Source: Candidatus Saccharimonadia bacterium
GTDB taxonomy: Bacteria > Patescibacteriota > Saccharimonadia > UBA4664 > JBBRNT01
Assembly: GCA_038230095.1 (NCBI GenBank)
Contig: JBBRNT010000001.1
Span: 48,848-112,847, forward strand
DNA length: 64,000 nt
Reading direction: 5' to 3'
The translations under genes and the position numbers were made by a program. Position 1 is the stretch's first letter. Each line of letters opens with the position of its first letter. Positions 2 to 49,026 of this stretch are shown piece after piece. The notes beneath the pieces were generated by a model that saw only the letters and a list, made by a program, of their open reading frames with translations, was not told the origin of the DNA and searched no databases.

Positions 2-715
2 TCAAAGGGTCGTAAATTTATTCTTTGCAAGAACGGTACTGTTACTGAAACAACTGATGGTTCACCGACAGACCCATTCTGTGCAAAACCAGGCGCGGGC
101 GGTGTGGTAAACAGTAATATCGCTGCACCAATACCAGATGACTTAACCAACCAGCCCCCATCTACCGCCGGATGGTACCTTATCTTTTGCAACGATTACA
201 CTGGCGGGGTGAGCTTAACTCCGGATGGTCGGGCCCTATGCTATGGGCACGGTGGGCTAATGACATCGGAGACCGCTGGCACAGTGCCAGGACCAAATGA
301 TATGCTCGCACTCTGTAAGGATGGGACGACCGTAAAGACAACCACTGACGGTCTAACTGGTGCTTGCAGCAGTGGTCTATTGATTGCACTATTCTCGCAG
401 ACGGGAGAAGTAACTCAGAGCACCAATCCTAAGTGTAGTGCGAGCGTTGTTACCCCTGGTCTCGACGCCACCGCGATCTGCTCCGCCCGAGGCGGCCCCA
501 TATTTGGCCTCATAAACTTTGCTATCAATTGGTTGATTCGCATTTTGGGTGGAGTAGCTGTCCTGGCATTAATTGTAAGTGGGATTCAATACATTACCTC
601 GCAGGGCAACCCGGACGCCATAAAGAAGGCTAAGAGCCGCATTACAAATGTAATTATTGGGCTACTTCTACTTAGCATCATGTTCGTAGTGCTCAAGTTT
701 ATTGGTATCGGCTAG
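2..715 (+). CDS. VirB2/TrbC-like pilin-family protein, 5'-partial. It has a Cys-rich N-terminal ectodomain and a C-terminal two-helix hydrophobic hairpin.
   Basis: The frame is open from nt 2 to the Met at 104, so the ORF runs off the window start. The C-terminal ~70 aa (GLINFAINWLIRILGGVAVLALIVSGIQYITSQGNPDAIKKAKSRITNVIIGLLLLSIMFVVLKFIG) are two TM helices split by a short polar loop. It is a clear paralog of the next five genes. Confidence 0.6.
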   Translation, partial: SKGRKFILCKNGTVTETTDGSPTDPFCAKPGAGGVVNSNIAAPIPDDLTNQPPSTAGWYLIFCNDYTGGVSLTPDGRALCYGHGGLMTSETAGTVPGPNDMLALCKDGTTVKTTTDGLTGACSSGLLIALFSQTGEVTQSTNPKCSASVVTPGLDATAICSARGGPIFGLINFAINWLIRILGGVAVLALIVSGIQYITSQGNPDAIKKAKSRITNVIIGLLLLSIMFVVLKFIGIG

Positions 716-769
716 CGACCATACCGCTCTACCTTGGTTTTTAGCACTACTTAACCTACAATCTGTGGA

Positions 770-1387
770 ATGAGGACAAAAGTATCACATGCAAAGGCAC
801 TTACTATCGCCGTTGTAGCACTTGGATTACAGGTGGTGGGTAGTTCCACTATTCTCCAACTACAGGCCTTGGCGGCGGCGGGTGGCCCAGGCCAAGCGGC
901 ATGCGTCGGTGGCGGCTATGTTGCTATTCCTGCCGATAACAACGTCGACGCTGCGTGTAAGGCGCAATACGGCCCCTCATCTGGTGCAGCAGTGACAACC
1001 CTAGCAACATCTGTTATATGCAATGATAAGACGGCAGCTAGCTACAATACAGCCACTGGCGATGCTGCGACTGCTTGCAAAAACAACGGTGGCTATACCT
1101 CAAAAGATACGAATTGCCCAACCGTAATTACGCACGGCCTACTGGTGGACTGCAACGCCAAGGGGGGTGTATTACTTGATCTGATCAACTTTGTCATTAA
1201 TTGGCTCATAGGTATTCTGGGAGGTTTTGCGGTATTGGCTTTGATTGTAAGTGGCATACAGTACATTACCTCGCAGGGCAGCCCCGATGGCATAAAGAAA
1301 GCAAAGGTGCGAATTACTAACGCAGTGGTCGGAGTCCTGCTATTATCAATAATGTTCATAGTGCTCAAATTCATAGGAATCGGATAA
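770..1387 (+). CDS. VirB2/TrbC-like pilin-family protein with signal peptide and Cys-rich N-domain
   Basis: The N-terminal signal-like segment is MRTKVSHAKALTIAVVALGL. There are multiple Cys residues in the ectodomain. The C-terminal hairpin (LDLINFVINWLIGILGGFAVLALIVSGIQYITSQGSPDGIKKAKVRITNAVVGVLLLSIMFIVLKFIGIG) is nearly identical to that of gene 1. Confidence 0.65.
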   Translation: MRTKVSHAKALTIAVVALGLQVVGSSTILQLQALAAAGGPGQAACVGGGYVAIPADNNVDAACKAQYGPSSGAAVTTLATSVICNDKTAASYNTATGDAATACKNNGGYTSKDTNCPTVITHGLLVDCNAKGGVLLDLINFVINWLIGILGGFAVLALIVSGIQYITSQGSPDGIKKAKVRITNAVVGVLLLSIMFIVLKFIGIG

Positions 1388-1695
1388 TGAAAACATATAT
1401 TATTACTTATCTTCTAGCGGCAGGCCCCACCCCGATATTGCAGGGCGTAAACCCTGATACCCAAGGACTGGATGCTGTACCTATACTCATTCATAACGTC
1501 GTGAATATTGCATTGTTCATAGCCGGCGGCCTATCGGTCATCTTCTTTATAGTCGGGGGTATGCGTTTTGCACTGTCTGCCGGTAATCCAGCCAGCACCA
1601 AACAGGCAAGGGAAACCATGCTCTACGCTATTATTGGTCTGGTGGTTTCTCTCGGGTCTTTTGCCATACTCAACTACGTAATACACATTTTCTAG
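1387..1695 (+). CDS. small VirB2/TrbC-like pilin-family protein
   Basis: The ATG overlaps the previous stop (taATGa). The N-terminal signal-like segment is followed by the same two-helix hairpin architecture (NIALFIAGGLSVIFFIVGGMRFALSAGNPASTKQARETMLYAIIGLVVSLGSF). Confidence 0.55.
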   Translation: MKTYIITYLLAAGPTPILQGVNPDTQGLDAVPILIHNVVNIALFIAGGLSVIFFIVGGMRFALSAGNPASTKQARETMLYAIIGLVVSLGSFAILNYVIHIF

Positions 1696-1701
1696 GACAC
1701 T

Positions 1702-2016
1702 ATGCTACACTCACTTCTTCACTACGCTCTTGCTACAATCACCATTTCTGATAACGGAATTATTAACTCTGGCACTGGGTTCTCTAGCCTGAATCCAGCC
1801 GGCGTATTCAGTGTAGTGGCAAATACTATAATTTTTCTCACTGGGGCAATTTCAGTAATCATGATCCTAGTCGGCGCTATTCGCTACGTAGTTTCGGCCG
1901 GTAATTCTGGGGCAGTTGCCAAGGCGAAGGATACTATCATCTACGCCTTGGTTGGACTGGTAGGCGCTGCCATGGGCTACGCTGCAATCCGCTTTATCGG
2001 GAACTTTTTCAAGTAA
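1702..2016 (+). CDS. small VirB2/TrbC-like pilin-family protein
   Basis: The two-helix hairpin is VANTIIFLTGAISVIMILVGAIRYVVSAGNSGAVAKAKDTIIYALVGLVGAAMGYAAIRF, paralogous to its neighbours. Confidence 0.55.
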   Translation: MLHSLLHYALATITISDNGIINSGTGFSSLNPAGVFSVVANTIIFLTGAISVIMILVGAIRYVVSAGNSGAVAKAKDTIIYALVGLVGAAMGYAAIRFIGNFFK

Positions 2017-2091
2017 TACTCTCGCTACCTGGTAGCAGCGTATGCTATCATTTTGCTAACGCTCATAAGCTAAATCACTAAGGAGAAACAA

Positions 2092-2481
2092 GTGAAACGA
2101 CTACAACAACTAATCCTCGGCGGCTTTACCGCCATGCTCGCTGTCATGTTCATGGCCGCACCAGCCCTAGGTGCGCCAGATGAGCTGGTAAATGGCATTA
2201 ACGGCTCGTCACCGACGAATGCCTCAAGCTGTCTGTTCGCAGGCCAGACCGGGTGTACGGCAGCCAACAGCATCTTCAGTCAGGTTGCCAACGTCCTGAT
2301 CTTCATCATCGGTGCCGTCGCTGTTATCATGCTGATCATCGGTGGTCTCCGCTACGTTCTCTCCAGTGGTAACTCCAGTGCAGTTGAAGGTGCTAAGAAC
2401 ACCATCCTCTACGCTATCATCGGTATCGTAGTAGCCTCACTGGCCTTTGCAGCGGTGAACTTCGTAGTTGGTAAGCTGTAA
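2092..2481 (+). CDS. VirB2/TrbC-like pilin-family protein (signal peptide + Cys-containing ectodomain + hairpin)
   Basis: RBS aaggag lies upstream. The signal peptide is MKRLQQLILGGFTAMLAVMFMAAPALGA. The C-terminal half is about 98% identical at the nt level to gene 2608..3030. Confidence 0.65.
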   Translation: MKRLQQLILGGFTAMLAVMFMAAPALGAPDELVNGINGSSPTNASSCLFAGQTGCTAANSIFSQVANVLIFIIGAVAVIMLIIGGLRYVLSSGNSSAVEGAKNTILYAIIGIVVASLAFAAVNFVVGKL

Positions 2482-2498
2482 TAAGCGCCGACCCAGGA

Positions 2499-2524
2499 AG
2501 AGACCCCTTCGGGGGTCTTTTTTG
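2499..2524 (+). terminator. rho-independent terminator (agaccccttcgggggtct + T-run)
   Basis: An 8-bp GC stem with a ttcg loop is followed by tttttt. Confidence 0.8.
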
Positions 2525-2607
2525 ATAAGGTCTTTTGTATTCTCGCTCAAATCTGCTATGATTCGGCCAAGTCAAGCAAAAATATATAACAGCTCACAGG
2601 AGAATTT

Positions 2608-3030
2608 ATGCCCAAGTTCAGTAAAGTAAGTCGTATTATTGCCCAGGCCTTCCTGGCAATTACTCTGATTACTAGTCCGTTTGTAGCTTCCATCGCACTG
2701 GCCGCTCCGTCGGGTCTAACGGATGGTATTAATGGCTCAGCACCGACTGGAGCGAGCACCTGCTTATTTGCTGGTACTGGCACCAATGCCGCTGGTAGTG
2801 TCTGTACGGCTGCGGATAGTATCTTCAGCAAGGTTGCCAACGTCCTGATCTTCATCATCGGTGCAGTCGCTGTTATCATGCTGATCATCGGTGGTCTCCG
2901 CTACGTTCTCTCCAGCGGTAACTCCAGTGCAGTTGAAGGTGCTAAGAACACCATCCTCTACGCTATCATTGGTATCGTAGTAGCCTCACTGGCCTTTGCA
3001 GCTGTGAACTTCGTAGTTGGTAAGCTGTAA
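2608..3030 (+). CDS. VirB2/TrbC-like pilin-family protein (signal peptide; paralog of 2092..2481)
   Basis: RBS ggagaa lies upstream. The signal peptide is present. The last ~70 aa are identical to the previous gene. Confidence 0.65.
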   Translation: MPKFSKVSRIIAQAFLAITLITSPFVASIALAAPSGLTDGINGSAPTGASTCLFAGTGTNAAGSVCTAADSIFSKVANVLIFIIGAVAVIMLIIGGLRYVLSSGNSSAVEGAKNTILYAIIGIVVASLAFAAVNFVVGKL

Positions 3031-5312: not shown

Positions 5313-5405
5313 GGAGAGGTACCCAAGTGGCTGAAGGGGCGGGTTTGCTAAACCTGTAGGGGGGAGTAATCCCCCGCGAGAGTTCGAATCTCTCCCTCTC
5401 CGCCA
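5313..5405 (+). tRNA. tRNA-Ser (anticodon GCU), long variable arm, CCA encoded
   Basis: The acceptor is GGAGAGG/CCTCTCC. The anticodon loop is TTGCTAA. The T-loop is GTTCGAATC. Confidence 0.9.
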
Positions 5406-5412
5406 AGAAAAA

Positions 5413-5440
5413 TGTCCCAGCTGGTCTGGGGCTTTTTTCT
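5413..5440 (+). terminator. terminator hairpin after tRNA-Ser(GCU) (cccagctggtctgggg + T-run)
   Basis: A stem-loop is followed by cttttttc. It is homologous to the terminator after tRNA-Ser(CGA). Confidence 0.6.
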
Positions 5441-5507
5441 TGCTTGGAACATAAGGCTTTTGTAATTATTGGCCTAGACGTGCAATAATTGTGGTAAGGA
5501 AATCACT

Positions 5508-6092: not shown

Positions 6093-6162
6093 GCTTCCCT
6101 CGGTCGCTAAAATGTGTTATTGTTGGCTTCGTCCCAACCGCACTTTCGTAGTCCATATTTGT

Positions 6163-6239
6163 GCGCTCGTAGCTCAGCTGGATAGAGCATCAGCTTGCGG
6201 TGCTGGGGGTCGGGGGTTCGAATCCCTTCGAGCGCACCA
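6163..6239 (+). tRNA. tRNA-Arg (anticodon read as GCG), CCA encoded
   Basis: The cloverleaf has acceptor GCGCTCG/CGAGCGC, D-arm GCTC..GAGC, anticodon stem TCAGC/GCTGG with loop TTGCGGT, and T-loop GGTTCGAATCC. ACG would be the more usual Arg anticodon, so the anticodon call is moderate. Confidence 0.8.
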
Positions 6240-6457
6240 GAGGCCTGTAACCAATTCGTTGGTAACAGGCCTCTGTTTTTGTTTGTGGGATGAGAACCCC
6301 CGAAAAGCCGGGTACTCACGGCGTGGGGTTCGGCGTAGGGCGCAGTCGCGGCGGAGCTGGCTTCAAGAACCTGCGCCCGGAGAAGCACGAATGTGCGCTA
6401 TCCCTTCGAGCGCACCAGAGGCCTGTAACCAATTCGTTGGTAACAGGCCTCTGTTTT
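6222..6457 (+). repeat. 58-bp direct repeat (6222..6279 and 6400..6457: last 18 nt of tRNA-Arg plus its terminator hairpin) flanking a ~120-bp insert (6280..6399)
   Basis: The sequence atcccttcgagcgcaccagaggcctgtaaccaattcgttggtaacaggcctctgtttt occurs twice, identically. Confidence 0.85.
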
Positions 6458-6473
6458 GTTTAGGATAGGGGTA

Positions 6474-8033
6474 ATGCGAGAAACTCCTTCACCAGCGGCG
6501 CGGCGTAGTCAATTATGGCTCTACATCCTGGCCTGTACCGCCTTTGTGCTCTGTGCACTGGGGATAGTCTGGGCGGCCTATGGTCGAGTAGAGCTGAACG
6601 GCAGCGGGAATAGGCTTATTCTGGCGAACTACCGTGATGACTTCATCTACAACTCCCTGGTTGCTAGCGGGGAGTTCTGTCGGCACAATCTGACAACAGC
6701 TATTCCAGAGGGGGGCTGCCGCATTAACCTGATCTGGTCTTTTACCCACCTCTTGTATTTCAACCAATCGGTTGCGCTGGCCGGCTTGTTGCTGCGCACT
6801 CTACTCTTTGGGTTAATCGCGACTGCCCTCCACGTGTTTGCCAGGCGCTGGTCCAGGGCCGCTGGGCTCCCAGAAGGGCGGGCCAGGCTGTGGCTGTTTG
6901 CCTTGGCTATGACGGCGGCCTATCCGCTGATCCTGGTGGCACCACGCTTGGACTACCATGAGTTTAGTGTCTTTTTGTCTCTCATCTCATCGCCGCCCAA
7001 TTTATTTTCGGCATTGGCCTATTTGGTGGTATTTGGCGGTTACTACCTGGGGCGTCACAAGCCGAGTACTTGGCCCATCTGGGGTGGTCTGGCAGGCATA
7101 TGGTTGTTTATCCACCCTTACTTTGTGTACCAGTGGGTAAGTCTAGTACTGGTCTGGGCCTATCTGGATAGGCGGACGCTCCGCGACCACTGGGGTAAGC
7201 GTTTGCTTCTGCTCGTGCCATCGACAGCAGCCATGCTCTACTACCTGTGGCTCGCACGGGTGAACCAATTCTTCAGATTCCACCTAGGAACCAATGTGAC
7301 TCGTTACCCGCTTAGCCTCTTGATTGTTCTGGTGGTGACACTAGTCGTGTATGGCTGGCTCAGCGTGAGGATAATCCGGCGTGGTACAGCTATGGCTGAG
7401 CGATCGACACTCCGACCGGATGGGTACCTCCTGAGCTGGGCGGTGGTGGTTGGGGTGTGGCAACTAGTTCCGATAGCCACCCAGATCCGTGGACTACTCC
7501 TCCTAAGCCTGCCACTGGCACTCCTACAGACGCAGCTGGTAATTCGATCCGGCGTGCGGTCCTATACGCGCCTGCTCCTTGGGGTGGTCGCGCTTAATTG
7601 TCTGCTCCTCTTAGGATCACTTATGAGCTACGAGCGACAGTATCTGGGTCCGGATACTCGACAGGTCACCCTGACCAGTGAAGACCGCGACCTAGGACTG
7701 TGGCTTGGAGCACCACCACAGAAGCAGGAGTATTTTGTGGGAACGGAGACCGCGAGCAGCCGCTTCATGTGGTTGTCACAGACCCACATTGTGAATACCC
7801 AGCAGCATGAGAGCCAGTACTTCCCCTGGTGGCACGAGCTAGATAAGCAGGTACGCCAGGGAGCTGGATCCTGCGACAAGGTAGCGCTGGGTATGAATAC
7901 GACCCATGCCAGCGGTGAGATTGCAGCCAAGTTCCGGGACCGGGACTGGATTACATTTATGCAGAGCTGTGGAGCACCGGTACGCTTCGAGAACGCGTCC
8001 TGGGTGGTCACTGGCGCTCCAGCGGCCAGGTAG
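6474..8033 (+). CDS. large polytopic membrane protein with C-terminal soluble domain; function unknown
   Basis: There are more than 10 hydrophobic helices. The start is chosen at ATG 6474 (RBS aggatagggg) rather than the TTG at 6456, which lies inside the repeat. Confidence 0.5.
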   Translation: MRETPSPAARRSQLWLYILACTAFVLCALGIVWAAYGRVELNGSGNRLILANYRDDFIYNSLVASGEFCRHNLTTAIPEGGCRINLIWSFTHLLYFNQSVALAGLLLRTLLFGLIATALHVFARRWSRAAGLPEGRARLWLFALAMTAAYPLILVAPRLDYHEFSVFLSLISSPPNLFSALAYLVVFGGYYLGRHKPSTWPIWGGLAGIWLFIHPYFVYQWVSLVLVWAYLDRRTLRDHWGKRLLLLVPSTAAMLYYLWLARVNQFFRFHLGTNVTRYPLSLLIVLVVTLVVYGWLSVRIIRRGTAMAERSTLRPDGYLLSWAVVVGVWQLVPIATQIRGLLLLSLPLALLQTQLVIRSGVRSYTRLLLGVVALNCLLLLGSLMSYERQYLGPDTRQVTLTSEDRDLGLWLGAPPQKQEYFVGTETASSRFMWLSQTHIVNTQQHESQYFPWWHELDKQVRQGAGSCDKVALGMNTTHASGEIAAKFRDRDWITFMQSCGAPVRFENASWVVTGAPAAR

Positions 8034-8229: not shown

Positions 8230-8319
8230 GGAGAGGTGACCGAGTGGCTGAAGGTACCGCTCTCGAAAAGCGGCATACCCGCAAGGGTATCGTGGGTTCA
8301 AATCCCACCCTCTCCGCCA
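8230..8319 (+). tRNA. tRNA-Ser (anticodon CGA), long variable arm, CCA encoded
   Basis: The acceptor is GGAGAGG/CCTCTCC. The anticodon stem is CCGCT/AGCGG with loop CTCGAAA. The T-loop is GGTTCAAATCC. Confidence 0.9.
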
Positions 8320-8321
8320 AA

Positions 8322-8356
8322 GAAATGTCCTCAGCCTAGGCTGGGGGCTTTTCTTT
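8322..8356 (+). terminator. terminator after tRNA-Ser(CGA) (cctcagcctaggctgggggc + ttttcttt)
   Basis: The hairpin plus T-run is homologous to 5413..5440. Confidence 0.6.
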
Positions 8357-8385
8357 GTTGGCGCGTATCCCGCTATAATCTGGTT

Positions 8386-9777
8386 ATGCAGACATTGTTA
8401 CGACGCGTACGACCACTCCCCTATCTAGTTCTCAAGCATTGGCGTGGGCTCGCGGGCGCACTGCTCCTATTCGGCTTTTTCTTTATCATTTGCGTGGGCC
8501 GGCTCGACCCAGACTTCGGGTGGCATCTGGCGGCCGGACGCTACATCCTGGCGCATGGCGTGCCAGCGACCGACCCGTTTAGCCTGACCATGTCGAAATT
8601 CCGCTGGGTGGACCATGAGTGGCTGCAGGACGTACTGTGGGCTGGCGTGTACCATCTGGGCGGCTACCGACTGCTTGCTGTAATGTGGGCCGCTCTCTGG
8701 ACAGCTGGTGTGCTGCTAGTCACTCGAACACGCTCCTGGGTGGTTGTAGGGCTGACGGCTGGCGTGCTAGCCCCATTTGCCGGTATACGCGCTGCCATCT
8801 GGGGGCTTTTGGGCGTGGGGCTAGTGGAGTGGCTAGTAGCAAGCAAATGGCGCCAGCGCTATGTGGCAATTATTGGTTTGTTTCTTATCTGGGCCAATGT
8901 GCATGCCAGCTTTGTATTTGGCCTGGGCGTGCTGGGTCTGGGTGTGGTTATGGACCGGGCCAAGGACCGCCGCCTGGTCTGGGCGACTGGACTCGCGGTG
9001 CTGGCTTCTCTTCTGAATCCCTATGGCTGGCAGGTGTATCTGGAGGTGTGGCGGACAGCATCGGATAGGCAGCTAGCCGGCCGAGTGTTTGAGTGGGCGC
9101 CCAATGCGCTGCGGCCGGCCTACCTGGTATTTGTACTGCTCCTGGTCTGCTTAGTTCTGTCGCTGGAGGGCTGGCGGAGCTGGAGGCGCTATCTGGTGGC
9201 AGGACTAACGCTGGTGATGAGCCTAGTTTCTATGCGTCATACTGTCCTGTTTGTAGCGGCTAGCTCGCGCCACCTTGGCCGACTATACCGAGTGGCAGCC
9301 AACAAGCTCCGTGGACGGCTACAACTGGCTTTTGTAGCTAAATATACCCTGGTGGTGGCAGTGATCCTGCCCACCGTACTAGGCTCCCAGTTGCGGTATG
9401 ACCGAGAAAGCCACTACGCTGGGAGGTATGTAGCGTATGCGCAGGACCATCCGTGTGCCGGTAACGTCTTTACCACCTATGACAATAATGGCTATCTCAT
9501 CTGGAAACTACCTGGCTTCCGGAGCTACATAGATGGGCGTATGCCCAGCTGGAAGGACGGCGAGGGTAAAATATTTGATCGTTACCTTCGGGTTTTTAAC
9601 GACCCTACCTATCGAGACCTGGAGTTTCGGCGCTTTAATATTGCTTGTGTGGTGGTACTCCAGGTTGATGAATCGCTAACGCACCGGATACAGGAGCAAT
9701 TCTTTGCAGATCTACGAGCGCAGGGCTGGCAGGACATTCCCGCTATGGGTAGTTACGTGGTGCTCGCACGGCCATAA
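8386..9777 (+). CDS. polytopic membrane protein, possibly a GT-C-fold glycosyltransferase-like enzyme
   Basis: About 11 TM helices are present. An early loop has the DPF...WVDHEW acidic motif. There is a C-terminal soluble domain. The track ORF start at 8236 overlaps the tRNA, so ATG 8386 is used; it is preceded by a tataat box. Confidence 0.4.
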   Translation: MQTLLRRVRPLPYLVLKHWRGLAGALLLFGFFFIICVGRLDPDFGWHLAAGRYILAHGVPATDPFSLTMSKFRWVDHEWLQDVLWAGVYHLGGYRLLAVMWAALWTAGVLLVTRTRSWVVVGLTAGVLAPFAGIRAAIWGLLGVGLVEWLVASKWRQRYVAIIGLFLIWANVHASFVFGLGVLGLGVVMDRAKDRRLVWATGLAVLASLLNPYGWQVYLEVWRTASDRQLAGRVFEWAPNALRPAYLVFVLLLVCLVLSLEGWRSWRRYLVAGLTLVMSLVSMRHTVLFVAASSRHLGRLYRVAANKLRGRLQLAFVAKYTLVVAVILPTVLGSQLRYDRESHYAGRYVAYAQDHPCAGNVFTTYDNNGYLIWKLPGFRSYIDGRMPSWKDGEGKIFDRYLRVFNDPTYRDLEFRRFNIACVVVLQVDESLTHRIQEQFFADLRAQGWQDIPAMGSYVVLARP

Positions 9778-41178: not shown

Positions 41179-42603
41179 TTAGCGCCGAAGGATAAGGTGG
41201 TTGTTGGCGTCGGTCCACATCTCCATGTAGGTCTTGGAGCAGGCACGCAACGAGGGGTTGCTAGCGTTGACGCAGACGGTATGGAGTAGGACGCCCCCGT
41301 GTAGCGCTAGGCTGATAAGCCCAGCGTCTTCGGCGCCTTGGCCATCAGTGAGTAGCAGGATTTCCGGCGTGTCGCCTTTACGGTGGGGCAGCCGGCGAAT
41401 GTCGTCGGCACCAGTGGTAATGGCACTCTGAATGTCTGTGCCGCCACCAAGGTTCGGGGGCACCATGAGCGCCGCAATGAGGCGGGCTTTGCCGACTTCG
41501 TCGGGAGCTTCCTGTAGTGCCCCAACCTGGCCGGTGAATGGACGATACAGGTACCGAGAGCCATCCTTCATGTGACAGCCAATGACGACGGACGCCAAGG
41601 CAATTTCCATGCAAATGCGGCGGTTATCGCAGCCTGCTTGCATGTTTGAAAGCGTGGATGGGCTCCAATCCATGAGGATGATCAGGTTCTGTCCCTTGGT
41701 GGCGTCAGGCACCCTGATCTTGCGCGAGTGAGTGACTGTCTTCTGATAGGGCTCCTGGCGCGTAACGGGCCGTTCCACCGTGGATGCCACTGGAGTCTCG
41801 ATCCGTTCTTGGTACTCAGAGACCAGTAGCTCTCGCTCGGCTACCTGGGGTGCCCAGAACTCTGTGGGTGTGCCCAAGAGTGCCAGGGGGATCTCGTCCA
41901 GCTCGGAGAAGCCTTCGATCTGTCGTAGTTCCTGGTCGTTGGTGGGGTAGGCGGCAGGTTCCCAGGAAGACGCGGTGGTGGTGATGGGGACGGGCTCGTT
42001 GTGCACCACGCTTCTGGTCCGTTCCACGACGACTGGCTCCTGAATAGTCACCTCTCTGGTAAGGTCGGGATTCTCCAGGTTGTAGTAGTCGATGACCGGG
42101 ATATTATGCATGGCATTGAGCTCGGCGATGAACTGGGGTACCAGATCTAGATCTGGCTTCAGCAGCACCGCGCTCCAGGCCGATGTGTTCATGGTGGCGA
42201 GCATTTCCACTAGCTCCTCGGTCTCACCGTCCATACGGCCAGGCAATGGCGCCTCGCCGCCCCATGGCTTGCCATCGCTTGATGTCTCTTGCTGTGACTT
42301 GGTTTGGTTCAGCTTAGGCAGCTGCACCAGGGGGTGGGGGCTGAAGAAGTGGGAGAACCGTTCCTGCCAACGCCGATGTGGCGAGACATTGGTTCGGGTG
42401 CGTAGATCGTAGACAGTGCCTGATTCATTCAGATTGTCTTGGACCTGGGTTACCGCCTCTTCGTAGGTGGGGTAGAAGCCGGCTGGCTTGCCCTCGTAGT
42501 CGAAGACTGCGAAGGGGCCATCACCATGGTCATCGGGCTTGGGGCTACGAATTAGCCACTTGCCAATGCCGATAGTGCGTTGAAAACGCTGTCCGACGTT
42601 CAT
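41179..42603 (-). CDS. VWA-domain protein (ViaA-like partner of the MoxR/RavA-type ATPase)
   Basis: The C-terminal VWA domain is LIILMDWSPS...GGGTDI...ILLLTDGQG. The start overlaps the stop of the ATPase gene. Confidence 0.65.
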   Translation of the reverse strand: MNVGQRFQRTIGIGKWLIRSPKPDDHGDGPFAVFDYEGKPAGFYPTYEEAVTQVQDNLNESGTVYDLRTRTNVSPHRRWQERFSHFFSPHPLVQLPKLNQTKSQQETSSDGKPWGGEAPLPGRMDGETEELVEMLATMNTSAWSAVLLKPDLDLVPQFIAELNAMHNIPVIDYYNLENPDLTREVTIQEPVVVERTRSVVHNEPVPITTTASSWEPAAYPTNDQELRQIEGFSELDEIPLALLGTPTEFWAPQVAERELLVSEYQERIETPVASTVERPVTRQEPYQKTVTHSRKIRVPDATKGQNLIILMDWSPSTLSNMQAGCDNRRICMEIALASVVIGCHMKDGSRYLYRPFTGQVGALQEAPDEVGKARLIAALMVPPNLGGGTDIQSAITTGADDIRRLPHRKGDTPEILLLTDGQGAEDAGLISLALHGGVLLHTVCVNASNPSLRACSKTYMEMWTDANNHLILRR

Positions 42604-43871
42604 GAAACTTCGGGCCAATCTTGCGTGAGCGACATGGTGCTGTCATTTGCCGGTGCCAGCAGCGGAAGCTCAGCACGGAGCTCCTGCATGATGGCCTGGT
42701 TGGTGGCATGTCCACGACGGGACTTGCCCAACCATTCCTGGATCTGGAGGGCGCCCCAGGTGGGGGCCTGCCCGGCAACCACATTGACAGCATGGGAGTT
42801 TTGGCCAGCTTCGTCGCGGAGCGTGTGCATACCCTCGGCCAGCCTCCCAAGTGTTTCGGTTTGCTTGATGTCGTCGGCACGAGTAGGAATGGTGGCGCGA
42901 CAGGTCTCGCTCCAGAGGGCTTCTAGCTCGGGGTTGGCGCCAATAGTGAGCAAGCCATACTCGTAGGTGTGGATGTCTGGGAACACGGTGTGATCGCGGC
43001 CATGCAGCACAGCATTGGCCCGCGACAGATTGAGTAGAAACGCATCGGTGCGTTGCGACAGCGGCGCCAGAACCGCCCCGATTTCATCAGGGGTTGGTTC
43101 ACGGCGCAAGGTGGGTTCCAGCTGCTCGCGGACCAGTGCTTCGGCCTGCGGCATGAAGGTGGCCAGGATGTGGGTGTGGAGCAGTCGGTAGCCCTCGCTC
43201 ATGACTATGCCGCCCTCTGAAGGGCTGGCGTTGGCCAGTGCTCGCATTTCCGCGAGGCCACCGTAGTCCAGCTTGGGGAGCTGGTGCGCGCGCTTTTCCA
43301 GGTAGTTGTCGGTCAGGCCCAGCTTGTCGATGTAGTTGGTAACAGGCGTAGCGCGGATCTTTACCAGGAAACGCTCCATGACGGCCTTGATGGCTTCCGT
43401 CAGGCGACGGAAGTTGGTGGTGGCAATCACGGTATGCAGCGGTATGTGCAGGATGGGATCGTCTTTGGACATGTAGATGCGCTCGTTCAGAACATTGAGC
43501 AGGGCACCGCGCAGGATCATATCCGGCAGGTCAAATAGCTCGTCCAGGAAGGCGAAGCCCGCGGTGAGTAGGCCGCCTTCAATATTACGAACTTGCTTGC
43601 CTTTCTCGATCATGAGGCTGACAATGAGCTGCCCAAACATGTCCTCGAGCTTGGTCATGGCAGAGACGCCGAGCCGGAAGATGGGTACGTCGGTGAACAT
43701 GGAAAAGGTGGAGACGGCAAGCTCGCTCTTGCCATTGCCAGCTTTGCCCTCAATGAGGACGTGTTGGCCGGCAACGAGCGCCAGGCTAATGCCCGGAACC
43801 GCGCGCCGGTAGCTGATAAACCCTTGCGCGACTTCCGACATTGCTACGGCGAATTCTTCACGGTACTGCAT
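42600..43871 (-). CDS. AAA+ ATPase, MoxR/RavA-like
   Basis: Walker A is VLIEGKAGNGKSELA. Walker B is FAFLDELFD. Sensor-1 is TVIATTNF. The sequence is collinear with the E. coli RavA core. The start is at MQYREEF. The track ORF extends to 44036. Confidence 0.7.
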   Translation of the reverse strand: MQYREEFAVAMSEVAQGFISYRRAVPGISLALVAGQHVLIEGKAGNGKSELAVSTFSMFTDVPIFRLGVSAMTKLEDMFGQLIVSLMIEKGKQVRNIEGGLLTAGFAFLDELFDLPDMILRGALLNVLNERIYMSKDDPILHIPLHTVIATTNFRRLTEAIKAVMERFLVKIRATPVTNYIDKLGLTDNYLEKRAHQLPKLDYGGLAEMRALANASPSEGGIVMSEGYRLLHTHILATFMPQAEALVREQLEPTLRREPTPDEIGAVLAPLSQRTDAFLLNLSRANAVLHGRDHTVFPDIHTYEYGLLTIGANPELEALWSETCRATIPTRADDIKQTETLGRLAEGMHTLRDEAGQNSHAVNVVAGQAPTWGALQIQEWLGKSRRGHATNQAIMQELRAELPLLAPANDSTMSLTQDWPEVS

Positions 43872-44060
43872 GGTTATTGTCCTAACTTGTCGAGGATCTC
43901 TGCGAAGACGGTTCGCGGATGCCGGAGGGAATGCCTCATGGTCAGCCCCAGCAGATGCTGGGGCGGGGTAGAGGGATTCCTGGGGGTGGGTCGATTGCTC
44001 GACCCACCCCCAAAGGAGACTGTCGTTACGGGACAAGCGTGGAGGAAGGAGAAGCTGCTC

Positions 44061-44279
44061 CTAGTAGCCGGTGAAGGCGGTGACGTAGACTGTCCGCGGC
44101 TCGGCGGACTCAACTACGAGCACCTGAATACCCTTGAGGATAACCTCTTGGCCGTCGTACGGGTGGGCGAAGAATGCCTCGCTACCACCGCGAACGCTCA
44201 AGGTGACCTCCCCTGTAATGCCGGGAGCGACTTGGCCAGTGACCCGGCCAATCTTCCCGATCAGGGAACTAATGGCCAT
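44061..44279 (-). CDS. NfeD-like C-terminal OB-fold protein (short form, 72 aa)
   Basis: The sequence is MAISSLIGKIGRVTGQVAPGITGEVTLSVRGGSEAFFAHPYDGQEVILKGIQVLVVESAEPRTVYV. A strong RBS (aggagg) is present upstream. The track ORF extends to 44618. Confidence 0.7.
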   Translation of the reverse strand: MAISSLIGKIGRVTGQVAPGITGEVTLSVRGGSEAFFAHPYDGQEVILKGIQVLVVESAEPRTVYVTAFTGY

Positions 44280-45717
44280 CAGTACCTCCTGTGGTATCGG
44301 CGCCGGCGGTTGCAGCATCGGGTGCGGGCGTAGGGGCGGCAGCTGCAACAGCCTTCGGCATGAACATGCCCCTGAGCAGTTCGAAGCCAGCCATGCCGGT
44401 GGAAGCCACCTGCATGAGTGCACCGTTGACTCCTTCGGCGCCGTTGAGCACCGTGAAGTTGTCGACATGAGCAAAAGCACTGGCAGCCTGGCCGACAATG
44501 TCTGCCCAGTTTTCGGCCAGCTGTTGCATGGCAACGGCTTCCGGATTGGTGGCCAGAGCCTCGGCACGAGCCTTGATAGCGGCTGCCTCAGCCAAACCGC
44601 GGGCCTCGATAGCCGCACCTTCTGCCTTACCTTTGGCCTCAGTGGCGTCGGCTTCGGCCTGACCCGTCAGACGGGTGGCTGCGGCCTCAGCCTCGGCAGC
44701 GAGGGTGATGCGCTTGGCATTACCCTGAGCTGTCAGTTCGGCGACCCGGCTGGTGGCCTCGGCGGCGGCAATATCGGCATCGCGCTTGGCCTCGGCCGGG
44801 CGGATGACGCTGGCAACCAGGCGCTGTTGCTCGCGTCCAGCTTCGAGTTCCGCAGCGCGGGTCTCTTGCTCGACGACGGCTTGGCGGGCCTGGGCTTCGG
44901 CCAGTGGGCCAGCCTGGGCGGCTTCCTGCTGGGCGCGGTCGCGCTCGGCCTGGAAGCCCGCTTGCTTGATGGCTGAGTCGCGCTCGGCCTCGGCCTTGAG
45001 GGCGTTGGCCTCTTGCTCACGCTGGGTGGCCTCGCGGTCGGCGTCGGCCTGAGCGATGCGAGCAGCACTCTGGACGGCGGCGGTGTGGGGCTTGGCCAGG
45101 TTGGCGATGTAGCCGGTCGGGTCATCGATCTCCTGGATCTGCAGCGAGTCGACGACGAGTCCCAACTTGACCATCTCGGTACCTGAGGCATCGCGGGTCT
45201 TGGTGGTCAGCTGCTCGCGGTCGCGGATCATGTCTTCCACCGTCATGCTGCCGACGATGCTGCGCAAGTGGCCGGCGAAGACGTTGTGAACTCGTTGGTC
45301 CATCTTGTCCTGCTGGTCGAGGAAGCGCCGGGCGGCGTTGGTGATGCTGGTGGGGTCGTCGCCGATCTTGTAGATGACCGTGCCTTGGACGTGGACGGGA
45401 ATGCCTTGGGCGGTGACGCAGTCGACAACGAGGTCGGCCTGGTGCAGGTCGAGCGACAGCCGACGGACGGCTTGGACGCCTGGCAAGACCAAGGTGCCCT
45501 TGCCGGTGACGATGCGGAAACCCATCTCGTCGCCGGTGGAATCCTTGACGGTTCCTTTCTTACTAAGTCCTGAGATGATCAGAGCTTCGTTGGGCTCGGC
45601 GACCCGCCACATGGCCTTGAACAGCAGGATGAGCACGATGATGATCGCAACCACTCCTATGACCGGGTAGGCAAAGACCGGGATCTTGGCCAGTTGACTG
45701 ATTGCTGCGTTCACAGC
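44269..45717 (-). CDS. floT: flotillin-like SPFH/Band-7 protein
   Basis: An N-terminal TM is followed by an SPFH domain and a long Ala/Glu-rich coiled-coil (EAQARQAVVEQETRAAELEAGR...). The GTG start has RBS aaggag. The ORF overlaps the NfeD gene start by 11 nt. Confidence 0.8.
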   Translation of the reverse strand, partial: AVNAAISQLAKIPVFAYPVIGVVAIIIVLILLFKAMWRVAEPNEALIISGLSKKGTVKDSTGDEMGFRIVTGKGTLVLPGVQAVRRLSLDLHQADLVVDCVTAQGIPVHVQGTVIYKIGDDPTSITNAARRFLDQQDKMDQRVHNVFAGHLRSIVGSMTVEDMIRDREQLTTKTRDASGTEMVKLGLVVDSLQIQEIDDPTGYIANLAKPHTAAVQSAARIAQADADREATQREQEANALKAEAERDSAIKQAGFQAERDRAQQEAAQAGPLAEAQARQAVVEQETRAAELEAGREQQRLVASVIRPAEAKRDADIAAAEATSRVAELTAQGNAKRITLAAEAEAAATRLTGQAEADATEAKGKAEGAAIEARGLAEAAAIKARAEALATNPEAVAMQQLAENWADIVGQAASAFAHVDNFTVLNGAEGVNGALMQVASTGMAGFELLRGMFMPKAVAAAAPTPAPDAATAGADTTGGTDGH

Positions 45718-46044
45718 TTCTCCTTGTGGGGTACAAACGGTATACGGCCCGCTATGCCGGAGGGAGTACCTCATAGCAACGCTCAATAGAATTGAGAATC
45801 GGCGAGAGATAGTCCAGATAGGACAAGATATTTATTAATAACATTTTTATGTTGTTTGGTCAACGTTTACCATCTGATAAGCCTAGCATAATGTGGGTTG
45901 CGGTATACTAGACCTGCCGCTGTCAGTCGTTTCGTAGACTGCCTGACAGTTGGTGAGGCGTCCGCCGGGAGCGGGCTGGAGTAATCCAGTCCCGCCCCCG
46001 AGCGGCGTTTTTAGTTGTGACGTAACTAACGTTGATTGGAAATA

Positions 46045-47639: not shown

Positions 47640-47728
47640 GGAGAGGTCGCATAGTTGGCCTAGTGCGCACGCTTGGAAAGCGTGTATGGGGCAACCCATC
47701 GAGAGTTCGAATCTCTCCCTCTCCGCCA
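47640..47728 (+). tRNA. tRNA-Ser (anticodon GGA), long variable arm, CCA encoded
   Basis: The acceptor is GGAGAGG/CCTCTCC. The anticodon stem is CACGC/GCGTG with loop TTGGAAA. The T-loop is GTTCGAATC. Confidence 0.9.
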
Positions 47729-47769
47729 AGAAAAGACCCTGACGAAAGTTGGGGTTTTTTCTTGGGCAG

Positions 47770-47884
47770 GGATAGATGTTATGAGAACTCTCGGGGGAGT
47801 TCGGCATAGGGCGATCACGCGCAGGAGCTGGCCCCGAGCATGTGAGACCGGAGAAGGGCTTTGCCCGCTCTTTCCCTCTCCGCC
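47770..47884 (+). repeat. ~100-bp element homologous to the insert at tRNA-Arg (6280..6399), ending in a 13-bp direct repeat of the tRNA-Ser(GGA) 3' end (47872..47884 = 47716..47728)
   Basis: Shared blocks are atgagaac, GGGG(a/t)GTTCGGC(a/g)TAGGGCG, GGAGCTGGC and CCGGAGAAG, plus a compensatory hairpin. Both elements are followed by a tRNA 3'-end copy. Confidence 0.7.
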
Positions 47885-47919
47885 AAAGCAGCGCCCCAAG
47901 CTAGTCTCGGGGCGCTGCT

Positions 47920-49026
47920 TTATTGGTTCAGCCTAAGCTCTGTTTTGCCCACTGGCTTGAGCGAATCAACCATCTTGATGAGTTCCGGAAGGAACGATGG
48001 GTTGTAGGCCATCCCGTTTACGCTATCGAATGATAAGGCGATGATGGTGTCGCTACGCACTAGATAGAAGCTGTGGTTTTGCGAGCGGGTGGCGGGGGTG
48101 CTGTAGAGCGTGTAGCCACCCGGGGTAACGACCGGGGTAGGGCAGGGAGGATAGACGCTGGGGTAGTGGTAATTTGTCCCAATGCCATCACCTAGCTCAA
48201 TGGCGAAGAAGATATGGTTAACATCGCAGTTAGTGGGTGGCTTTATGGCTGCCGCGTAGCTGTCGAGCATTTTCCCGACGGCAAAGGCTATGGACTGGCG
48301 CCGGCCCGGCCCATCGAGGTGCGCCTGCAGGCTTGGTTGGTAGCTTGACACGGAGGATAGCTTTGGATCTCTGATAGTAAAGCCGGTCGGCAGGTAGCCT
48401 GGTAAATAGGGCTGGAAATTAATGCGCCTAAGATTGTCGGCCTGTGTGGCCGTTTCTTTGATAGCTCTTTGCTGCCTGGCGCTACTTTCCAGGGTGGCAA
48501 TTACATTGCTGGCGCTACCAAGTGCAACGATTGATACAATAATGAGCAACAGGTGAGTCCTTAGGCTGGTGGTTGCGCTATGGAGTAAGGCATAGGCAAG
48601 ACCATAGGTGGCGGCATTGATAACAACTAATAGTGCTAGATAAACAATCGGCGAAGTGGCTTGGAGCCAACTGCCGGATACAGATAAGTAGAGCATGATG
48701 CTCGCGGCGCCCGACATAACAAATGCTCCCCGGTAGCGAAGCATGCGTAGCGCAAAGCCAGTAACCAAGAAGGCCCCGACAAACGATGCACCAATGAGCA
48801 GGGGGGCTACAACAAGGCCAATGGCAAGCCCAGAAAGGCCGCTAAACAGACTACCACTCTGGCGGATTGCCACGTTGGCAATGAGAATACGTAGCCCAAC
48901 GAGTATGCCTATTCCGAGCGGCGATAGGGCGAGGAGTAAGCGCCATCCAGGCTGGGGCTGTGTGGGCGGTGGATTGGTTGGCAGGCTCATGGAGATAGTA
49001 TATAGCGCGTGGATAAACATAACCAC
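47920..49026 (-). CDS. polytopic membrane protein with C-terminal extracytoplasmic domain; hypothetical
   Basis: About 7 TM helices are followed by a ~190-aa soluble domain. Confidence 0.45.
   Translation of the reverse strand: MVMFIHALYTISMSLPTNPPPTQPQPGWRLLLALSPLGIGILVGLRILIANVAIRQSGSLFSGLSGLAIGLVVAPLLIGASFVGAFLVTGFALRMLRYRGAFVMSGAASIMLYLSVSGSWLQATSPIVYLALLVVINAATYGLAYALLHSATTSLRTHLLLIIVSIVALGSASNVIATLESSARQQRAIKETATQADNLRRINFQPYLPGYLPTGFTIRDPKLSSVSSYQPSLQAHLDGPGRRQSIAFAVGKMLDSYAAAIKPPTNCDVNHIFFAIELGDGIGTNYHYPSVYPPCPTPVVTPGGYTLYSTPATRSQNHSFYLVRSDTIIALSFDSVNGMAYNPSFLPELIKMVDSLKPVGKTELRLNQ

Follow-up and report, generated by a model that had tools for sequence, protein, structure and literature searches.

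The DNA analysed here, a window of 64,000 nucleotides from contig JBBRNT010000001.1 of a Candidatus Saccharimonadia bacterium (positions 48,848 to 112,847 of the forward strand), is a housekeeping stretch of a Saccharimonadia (TM7) chromosome that encodes valyl-tRNA synthetase (ValRS), GroEL, TsaD, FemAB, Mur ligases, type IV secretion pilins and a ComF-like gene. The nearest relatives of its ValRS share only 62–68% identity and are labelled Candidatus Saccharimonadia. Behind two of its tRNA genes, tRNA-Ser(GGA) and tRNA-Arg(GCG), lies a small element without genes, which is made up of a terminator-type hairpin, a structured core and a copy of the 3′ end of the adjoining tRNA. The parts at tRNA-Ser(GGA) are the following, with positions counted within the window:

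47640..47728, + strand: tRNA-Ser(GGA), the intact target gene (ARAGORN; Rfam tRNA model 54.3 bits), with tRNA positions 59-76 at 47711-47728
47729..47764, + strand: T1 of the Ser unit, a terminator-type hairpin (agaaaagaccc..ggggttttttctt) directly after the CCA, seen in the sequence
47768..47872, + strand: structured core (nhmmer E = 5.5e-11; manual structural alignment A5 and pair counts), consisting of the P0 5′ strand AGGGA (47768-47772), the box ATGAGAAC, P1 (47785-47802), P2 (47813-47847, internal loop GCGCAG / CGAGCAT, apical part GAG-CTGG-CCC), the purine junction CCGGAGAA and P3 (GGGC-TTT-GCCC, 47856-47866)
47873..47885, + strand: displaced copy of the tRNA-Ser 3′ end, tccctctccgcca, identical to 47716-47728
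47886..47922, strand-neutral: T2, a symmetric terminator hairpin that differs from T1

The first-pass annotation of this DNA had reported a 13-bp direct repeat of the tRNA-Ser 3′ end; the repeat is real and lies one base further to the right than it had been placed. It grows to 14 nt when the next A is counted, and together with 47868-47872 and a 2-nt TT insertion it matches 16 of the 18 nucleotides of tRNA positions 59-76. The TCCCT of this tail pairs with AGGGA to form P0. The T1 hairpin is the opening part of the inserted unit; in related genomes the terminator travels together with the core. The strong terminator hairpin that had been noted after the Ser copy is present as T2, which is probably native to the site and shared with a convergent open reading frame (ORF) at 47920-49026 on the minus strand. 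The sister copy at tRNA-Arg(GCG) has these parts:

6163..6239, + strand: tRNA-Arg(GCG), the target gene of the sister copy (ARAGORN; Rfam)
6240..6284, + strand: T1 of the Arg unit, a terminator hairpin and T run, seen in the sequence
6287..6399, + strand: structured core (nhmmer E = 4.6e-11; fold; structural alignment), consisting of P0 GGGAT, the box GAGAACCC, P1 with a 26-nt loop that holds an extra hairpin, P2 (GCGCAG..CTGCGC, apical part GAG-CTGG-CTT) and P3 (GCAC-GAAT-GTGC)
6400..6417, + strand: 18-nt copy of tRNA-Arg positions 59-76 (ATCCCTTCGAGCGCACCA), identical at 18 of 18 positions
6418..6462, + strand: second copy of the Arg terminator, exact over 40 nt, then with a 1-T indel

Each copy thus ends in the 3′ end of the tRNA that it adjoins, as had been observed before, and the Arg repeat is far longer than had been implied: it comprises the 18 nt of tRNA and the whole terminator (58 nt exact, about 63 nt with one T indel; 6222-6284 against 6400-6462). 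A second, truncated unit may begin with this additional copy of the Arg terminator. The sequence GGATAGGGGTAATGCGAGAAAC after the repeat resembles the 5′ start of the Ser copy at a level that is not significant (142 of 1000 shuffles reach the score).

The likeness of the two copies, claimed in the first pass from inspection, holds under formal alignment. The local alignment of 6281-6401 with 47776-47870 scores 47, compared to 15.3 ± 2.4 (maximum 29) for 1000 dinucleotide-preserving shuffles, which corresponds to z = 13, and the blocks that had been listed as shared occur in both copies (ATGAGAAC, GTTCGGC(R)TAGGGCG, GGAGCTGGC and CCGGAGAAG). The best relative of the Ser copy is the Arg copy (68%), while the Arg copy has its best match in another genome (75%). 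An exact-pattern scan of 185,579 species genomes for the blocks common to both window copies yielded no match, with the window's own contig not being among the matches either. A peptide gene is ruled out, because the shared blocks lie in different frames in the two copies and the reading frame is hence not kept. The terminators of three tRNA-Ser genes in the window (5405-5445, 8320-8360 and 47729-47764) share the frame CCA-AGAAA..hairpin..TTTCTTG; their hairpins are flanked by complementary A and T runs and could terminate transcription in both directions.

Homologous copies were sought in loci from a ValRS-anchored scan of species genomes, which returned 51 loci, almost all of them from Saccharibacteria, and by a script that looked within 500 nt of each tRNA, other tRNAs being excluded, for a repeat of its tail. 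Further copies beside other tRNAs, for which the first-pass annotation had proposed to look, do exist: 22–23 homologous copies were found in 53 Saccharibacteria loci, in addition to one minimal variant and one copy in a Paceibacter. A profile of the core retrieved 20 copies at E ≤ 0.01 and 22–23 after iteration, from 809 kb with 155 tRNAs. The arrangement with a repeated tail is seen behind tRNA-Ser(GCT/TGA/CGA), behind tRNA-Arg(GCG) and, in one Paceibacter locus, behind tRNA-Arg(TCG). Every copy of the core lies 3′ of a tRNA-Ser or tRNA-Arg on the same strand; none was found away from Ser and Arg tRNAs in the 809 kb searched, and none behind about 36 Leu, Met, Val, Glu, Cys and other tRNAs of these loci. 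A conserved block, GGGTTCGG, is located 58–106 nt past the CCA, or further out where the copy is the second or third unit of an array; the spacing from CCA to core is 58–86 nt in most first units. Occupancy is patchy, with 18 of about 116 Ser/Arg tRNAs carrying units. A syntenic JGI contig (L003) has a shorter relative directly after tRNA-Ser(TGA), with the box GGTGGGATGAGAA, which ends in a 20-nt copy of the tRNA end.

A metagenome scan with a window-specific pattern returned only one human-gut Firmicute sequence, on two contigs (L001:1750-2100 and L002:850-1130). By eye, this sequence looks like a long signal-recognition-particle RNA (containing gtcaggtcaggaatgaagcagc), and the match was judged to be due to chance. 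A separate arrangement was observed at L040:5096-5172 (minus strand), where part of tRNA-Val(GAC), from the 5′ strand of the T-stem to the 3′ end, is repeated after the gene. Close to where its T-loop starts, this partial copy is broken by a hairpin of 24 nt, CCCCGCGCAGGCGGGG, which bears the internal-loop letters GCGCAG of the cassette described below. The arrangement may be a minimal relative.

A complete unit measures about 150–180 bp. It starts with the terminator-type hairpin immediately 3′ of the CCA of the intact tRNA gene, continues after a few bases with the box GGGAT-GA-GAACCC, a near reverse complement of a T-arm, and leads through a structured core of about 100–130 nt to the copy of tRNA positions 59-76. 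Within the core, the order is GGGTTCGGYGGA, a long hairpin with the conserved internal loop CGCGCAG / CGAGCA, the purine junction GAAGAAGG, a short hairpin and then GCU. The tRNA-derived tail has one sharp and one variable edge. On the left, 20 of 22 copies show no extension beyond tRNA positions 58/59, whereas the right edge lies between 0 and 45 nt past the CCA: at zero in most copies, at 6 nt in L030, at about 7 nt in L025 and at 40–45 nt in the Arg copy of the window. The length of the direct repeat ranges from 13 to 63 nt across the family, and this combination of edges fits the identity block of an attachment (att) site and not a fixed target-site duplication. The distal 18-mer is perfect in 9 of 22 copies, matches at 17 of 18 positions in two more and at 7–16 of 18 in the rest (12 of 18 in L022_15170, for example), while ATCCC and the core persist. 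Such divergence in about half of the copies is what would be expected for a displaced fragment.

The core helices are kept by compensatory changes. The structure was tested on a hand-made alignment (A5) of 19 copies with five proposed helices and 27 pairs. Standard pairs fill 85.3% of the cells, compared to 69.6% after shuffling (reached by 0 of 500 shuffles), 19 of the 27 pairs are changed on both sides (11.1 in shuffles), and the covariation score is 0.380 (0.133 in shuffles). When the partners were slid by 1–3 columns, only 34–47% of the cells were paired and the covariation fell to 0.05–0.08. In a separate permutation test of within-copy against between-copy pairing, the observed value was reached 0 times for P2a, once for P2b and 50 times for P3 out of 20000. 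All six pairs of P2a covary (GCAAAG/CTTTGC, GTAAGG/CCTTAC, GCTCTG/CAGAGC, ACTCTG/CAGAGT, GCGCAG/CTGCGC). P3 occurs as gcac/gtgc, gggc/gccc, GTCGC/GCGAC, GTCCGTC/GACGGAC and GGC/GCC. It contains the hairpin, gcac-gaat-gtgc in the Arg copy and gggc-ttt-gccc in the Ser copy, from which the first-pass annotation had argued for a conserved, compensated structure; the argument is supported and extends to the whole element. The weakest helix (77%) is P0, in which the bases just before the box are joined to ATCCC of the tRNA-derived tail; it shifts its register in some copies. The best fold of a single copy is a four-way junction of P0–P3 with the last ~11 nt unpaired. Single copies fold no better than their shuffles (z +1.2 to −0.4), so that the structure is argued from covariation only.

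Several other assignments of the core were considered. A helix GUUCGG/UCGAGC proposed by RNAalifold was dropped, as both of its strands are invariant and two variants break the pairing. In Rfam 15 nothing covers the core even at E ≤ 10, and only tRNA and tRNA-overlapping models match. Hammerhead and other ribozyme cores were compared by eye with the GAUGAGAA box and do not fit, and no ribozyme model of Rfam matches. A small RNA ending in a tRNA-like acceptor or CCA mimic, one of two readings offered in the first pass, is not supported: the folds leave the last ~11 nt single-stranded, the acceptor strand has no conserved partner in most copies, only ATCCC pairs (P0, 77% of cells), and the tail has decayed away from the neighbouring tRNA in about half of the copies while the core is kept. 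The folded core is therefore probably not a tRNA mimic.

That the units have moved is indicated by sites which differ between genomes. In L025, the tRNA-Ser(GCT) site is empty and the CCA is directly followed by GTAATTTTGCTAAAGTTAT. The same tRNA-Ser(GCT) in L027 is filled; here the CCA is followed by terminator, core and tail, and the flank resumes right after the tail with GTAATTTTGCTGAAGTTAT. The tRNA-Ser(GCT) sites of L028 and L020 are filled as well, L020 and L025 sharing the genus label UBA4664. The unit at tRNA-Ser(GCT) in L027, terminator included, is also the second array member behind tRNA-Ser(CGA) in L025. Closely related cores are found at different tRNAs: L020 (Ser-GCT) and L025_8148 (Ser-CGA array) are 96% identical, L022 (Arg-GCG) and L024 (Ser-TGA) 88%, and L023 (Arg) and L046 (Ser-GCT) 80%.

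Tandem arrays occur in L022, L024 and L025. In the Ser-GCT array of L022, two units whose cores are 97% identical and whose terminators are siblings precede a terminator of another kind; the Ser-TGA array of L022 also has two units, of which the first is interrupted by an unrelated insert of about 130 nt. Two units are present in the array of L025, and the array of L024 contains two units, then a third with different cargo but a tail of the same kind, ending in TCCACCCTCTCCGCCA, and finally a terminator and a truncated box. Two other sequences were noticed besides. A second small repeat (ttgtcatcctgagtga..gaaggatct..cagaatgaca; L022:14400-14490, L022:14985-15115 and L024:14805-14850), one copy of which splits a cassette core within its long hairpin, has the appearance of a miniature insertion element with no relation to the cassettes. 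Upstream of tRNA-Ser(TGA) there is a segment of about 130 nt, TTGCTCTTAACCAATAATTAATCCGAATGAACCGCCAGGTGAATG..AAAGGAGTAATACAGCGCC.. (L028:12090-12380 and L020:5090-5273, tandemly duplicated in both; once each in L025 and L027). This segment is highly conserved between the genomes and might represent a leader or small RNA.

Integrase islands are recognised by an intact tRNA gene that is accompanied by a displaced 3′ fragment, by crossover in the T-stem region and by tandem arrays (PMC4383910). The family is, with about even confidence on our side, interpreted as one of miniature non-autonomous cassettes without genes, which integrate at the 3′ ends of tRNA-Ser and tRNA-Arg and are moved in trans; this reading follows from the presence of the integrase-type signature in a unit that is tiny, gene-less and without a nearby recombinase. 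Insertion would proceed by site-specific recombination with a crossover at the T-loop/T-stem boundary (ATCCC..), as in elements of tyrosine integrases. The element would supply a replacement tRNA 3′ end and a terminator, and the original 3′ end would be pushed to the far side, where it would be free to decay. The recombinase would have to act in trans. The fold, in turn, might serve the maintenance or mobility of the cassette itself, be it in the form of an RNA read through from the strong tRNA promoter or in that of a single-stranded DNA substrate of recombination. The attP-type core restoring a tRNA, which had been the other reading of the first pass, is supported in the main by the sharp 58/59 edge, the variable right edge, the filled and empty sites and the tandem stacking; what does not agree with it is the size of only ~150–180 bp and the lack of a recombinase. 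A duplication of fixed stagger or a copy made from a mature tRNA primer would give two fixed edges and no terminator, so that transposase- and retro-type models are disfavoured.

A number of points weigh against the cassette interpretation. The unit of 150–180 bp carries no gene at all. Neither a tyrosine recombinase, for which the first pass had proposed to look, nor another gene of mobility (reverse transcriptase, transposase, TnpB-like) turned up in the ~37 large ORFs of the window or next to the arrays of L022 and L024. No autonomous relative was found either: a pattern scan of IMG/VR gave 49 matches, all due to chance and without nhmmer support. Tails usually track the local tRNA, and a core subtype beside a new tRNA bears the tail of that tRNA, although a simple crossover within the shared 7-bp overlap cannot swap tails without breaking the tRNA. 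Conservation of hairpins independently of their sequence is unusual for the arm sites of an integrase. The alignment A5 was made by hand and fitted to the structure, and neither an excised circle nor a transcript has been observed. Finally, sampling was confined to loci around one tRNA cluster, which may account in part for the restriction to Ser and Arg.

A host small-RNA gene family, in which a structured RNA is made with or just after the tRNA and the tail is a by-product of duplication or pairs with the GGYGGA junction, is a rather unlikely alternative. The strong covariation of the helices speaks for it, as does the complementarity of GGCGGA to TCCGCC of the Ser tails. Three observations count towards an RNA on the tRNA strand: the unpaired segments consist of 60% purines, the loops include the G(CUUG)C and GNNA types, and the orientation of the core relative to the tRNA promoter is constant. 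G.U (G.T) oppositions are, however, not in excess over A.C (18 and 20), the minimum free energy shows no strand bias (7 of 20 copies, p = 0.68), and a terminator hairpin separates the tRNA from the core. A scan for promoters with two hexamers was passed by one unit only (TTGTCG-17-TATAGT), which speaks for a gene in this unit and against a consistent promoter of the family. Nor do the patchy occupancy, the same subtype at different tRNAs in sister genomes, the tandem arrays of several subtypes, the truncated or interrupted copies and the lack of a matching Rfam family fit with a host gene. It was noted besides that −10-like hexamers (TAGAAT, TATAGT, CATTAT, AAGAAT) stand just before the box in about half of the copies, for example at L046:14405-14416, L023:14790-14800 and L022:14033-14038. 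The core fold possibly acts as RNA or as single-stranded DNA; the latter is to be considered because G.T equals A.C, both strands fold alike, a terminator intervenes and a promoter-like site is seen in one unit only.

In an unlikely but farther-reaching extension, the tRNA genes of Saccharibacteria, with their strong promoter and with positions 59-76 as the site of attachment, would act as a platform like that of an integron and collect tandem gene-less cassettes, the four-way-junction fold being itself active in mobility. The fold could then be a single-stranded DNA substrate that mimics a T-arm duplex, with P0 and P1 pairing GGGAT-GA-GAACCC with ATCCC and GGGTTC. The other option is that the fold is an RNA which guides or templates its own insertion. 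If true, this would be a cassette system without protein-coding cargo, whose recombination site is defined by structure.

Decayed scars of prophages or islands, with attL and attR left side by side after loss of the interior, appear quite improbable. They would share the intact tRNA with its displaced direct 3′ fragment and the T-arm boundary (PMC4383910), and some copies are in fact truncated or interrupted. Yet the same core of ~100 nt, with its helices compensated, would have to remain after each of more than 20 independent deletions. Sibling units are 96–97% identical and the polymorphism between filled and empty sites amounts to exactly one small unit.

A retro-type element, in which an RNA copy is reverse-transcribed from the 3′-OH of the tRNA, is very doubtful. 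A retroviral primer-binding site comprises 18 nt, i.e. tRNA positions 59-76, and the 18-mer of the cassette could be its equivalent, made anew from whichever tRNA had served as primer, with a stop at a modified A58. The unit begins exactly after the CCA and ends with exactly these positions, the tail tracks the neighbouring tRNA and not the core subtype, and a conserved fold would suit an RNA template. Other observations go against a tRNA-primed retroelement: the repeat passes the CCA into the trailer or terminator in the Arg copy of the window (40–45 nt), in L025 (~7 nt) and in L030 (6 nt), sequence which a mature tRNA cannot supply, and no reverse transcriptase is encoded in the window or beside the arrays. 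The reported absence of group II introns from Patescibacteria (PMC13011429) was counted against it as well.

An RNA-guided homing element, with the core as guide scaffold, the 18-mer as guide, TTCGA of the T-loop as adjacent motif and a nuclease or recombinase, encoded elsewhere, that is directed to tRNA genes, is highly improbable. In its favour, the unit is built as a scaffold with a 3′ segment of ~18 nt that equals a nearby genomic target, TTCGA stands invariantly and immediately 5′ of the match in every tRNA, and the CCA-to-core spacing is roughly constant. On the other side, neither the window nor the neighbouring loci yielded a gene for TnpB, IscB, Cas or IS110, the IscB guide RNA (HEARO) and the other Rfam models do not match, the left flank has no conserved target motif, and the repeats that include a terminator are left unexplained.

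Some neighbouring genes of the window deserve mention. A run of short genes at 104-3030 with a T4SS_pilin domain (PF18895) is followed by an HSP20 gene and a gene for a ComF-like phosphoribosyltransferase, and this gene order is kept in L003 beside the tRNA cluster. tRNA-Ser(CGA) is flanked by two ORFs without a Pfam domain (6456-8033, 525 aa; 8236-9777, 513 aa), of which the former has no homologue among 5.8 billion clustered proteins; its 5′ end overlaps the possible start of a truncated cassette. The minus strand at 41179-45786 encodes a MoxR-type AAA protein with a bpMoxR domain, a flotillin/SPFH protein and, without annotation, an ORF of 479 aa, which together resemble a ternary system of the MoxR-vWA type.

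In this lineage of tiny genomes, selfish DNA is regarded as scarce. The five covarying helices define a conserved fold of nucleic acid that is new and has no entry in Rfam. If the cassette interpretation is true, the units offer a concrete starting point from which to look in Saccharibacteria for the recombinase, or another enzyme, that acts in trans, and the question arises whether tRNA promoters are exploited to express parasitic RNAs. On a more practical level, the units account for ORFs called in error, such as 6112-6468 and 47673-47936, as well as for ‘partial tRNA’ fragments beside tRNA genes in genome bins of the candidate phyla radiation (CPR).

Among known systems, several share single features with the family. 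Like 3′ external transcribed spacer small RNAs (e.g., 3′ETS-leuZ), which derive from the region 3′ of tRNA genes, the cassette is non-coding, has the orientation of the tRNA gene and lies immediately downstream of it; unlike these RNAs, it is situated beyond a terminator hairpin, patchy, mobile, arranged in arrays and terminated by a tRNA fragment. The primer-binding site of retroviruses and long terminal repeat (LTR) elements likewise places exactly the last 18 nt of a tRNA beside a structured non-coding region. In the cassette, the 18-mer adjoins the gene of the same tRNA, the repeat can hold post-CCA trailer, and there is neither a reverse transcriptase nor an LTR. Miniature transposable elements with inverted repeats (MITEs) and other small non-autonomous transposons resemble the units in size, lack of genes, several copies per genome and strong secondary structure. 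A MITE was rejected, as the aligned ends have no terminal inverted repeats beyond the 5-bp P0, the repeat of 13–63 nt has one edge fixed at a certain tRNA position and one that varies, and the units are exclusive to tRNA 3′ ends. Compared to IS200/IS605-type elements, hairpins are present, the left flanks have no shared motif and no TnpA or TnpB is encoded in the window.

Integron attC cassettes are similar in being small promoterless units in one orientation at a fixed promoter platform, with the part relevant to recombination conserved in fold and not in sequence, and the lack of preference for G.T over A.C is compatible with a DNA fold. The platform is, however, a tRNA gene, the cargo is non-coding and there is no IntI; sites of the R′′/R′ type (RYYYAAC / GTTRRRY) were not found in the cassettes, the nearest motif GTTCGGC misfitting GTTRRRY, and neither was an integrase. 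Known cis-mobilizable elements (CIMEs) are kilobase-scale, gene-carrying deletion derivatives that are moved in trans by the integrase of a related integrative and conjugative element (ICE). With CIMEs and other non-autonomous integrative elements, the cassettes have in common the flanking att repeats, the absence of recombination genes and the tandem accretion at one site, but no parent element is known for the cassette family.

The closest parallel is found in islands and prophages at tRNA genes with the Islander signature, which show a restored intact tRNA, a direct 3′ fragment at the far end, an identity block of T-stem/T-loop and tandem arrays (PMC4383910). By the features used there, the cassettes have an intact tRNA and a cognate direct 3′ fragment (9 of 22 tails perfect at 18 of 18 positions, all on the same strand), an identity block that starts in the T-stem region and reaches to or past the gene end (20 of 22 with nothing beyond 58/59; 0–45 nt on the right), and presence or absence with a precise junction (L025 empty; L027, L028 and L020 filled). 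What is lacking is an integrase inside the interval, which has no ORF, and no Phage_integrase match was obtained for the ORFs of the window or beside the arrays. Further differences are the size of 150–180 bp instead of kilobases, the hairpin-rich core and the occurrence of the same core with different tRNA ends; the units would, if rightly interpreted, be far smaller than the kilobase-scale islands catalogued at tRNA genes. A full-text search of the literature did not yield a description of such elements, and a paper on the tRNA genes of Patescibacteria reports group I introns in the anticodon loop with no mention of such cassettes. The family of gene-less, hairpin-rich mini-cassettes behind Ser and Arg tRNAs of Saccharibacteria is thus apparently undescribed. 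Its tail is the kind of footprint that integrating viruses leave, here in a unit of only ~150–180 bases, and in its behaviour the family comes closest to an integrative element of which little more than the attachment region is left. Integration at tRNA genes is known; what is apparently new is the tiny gene-less cassette with its conserved fold.

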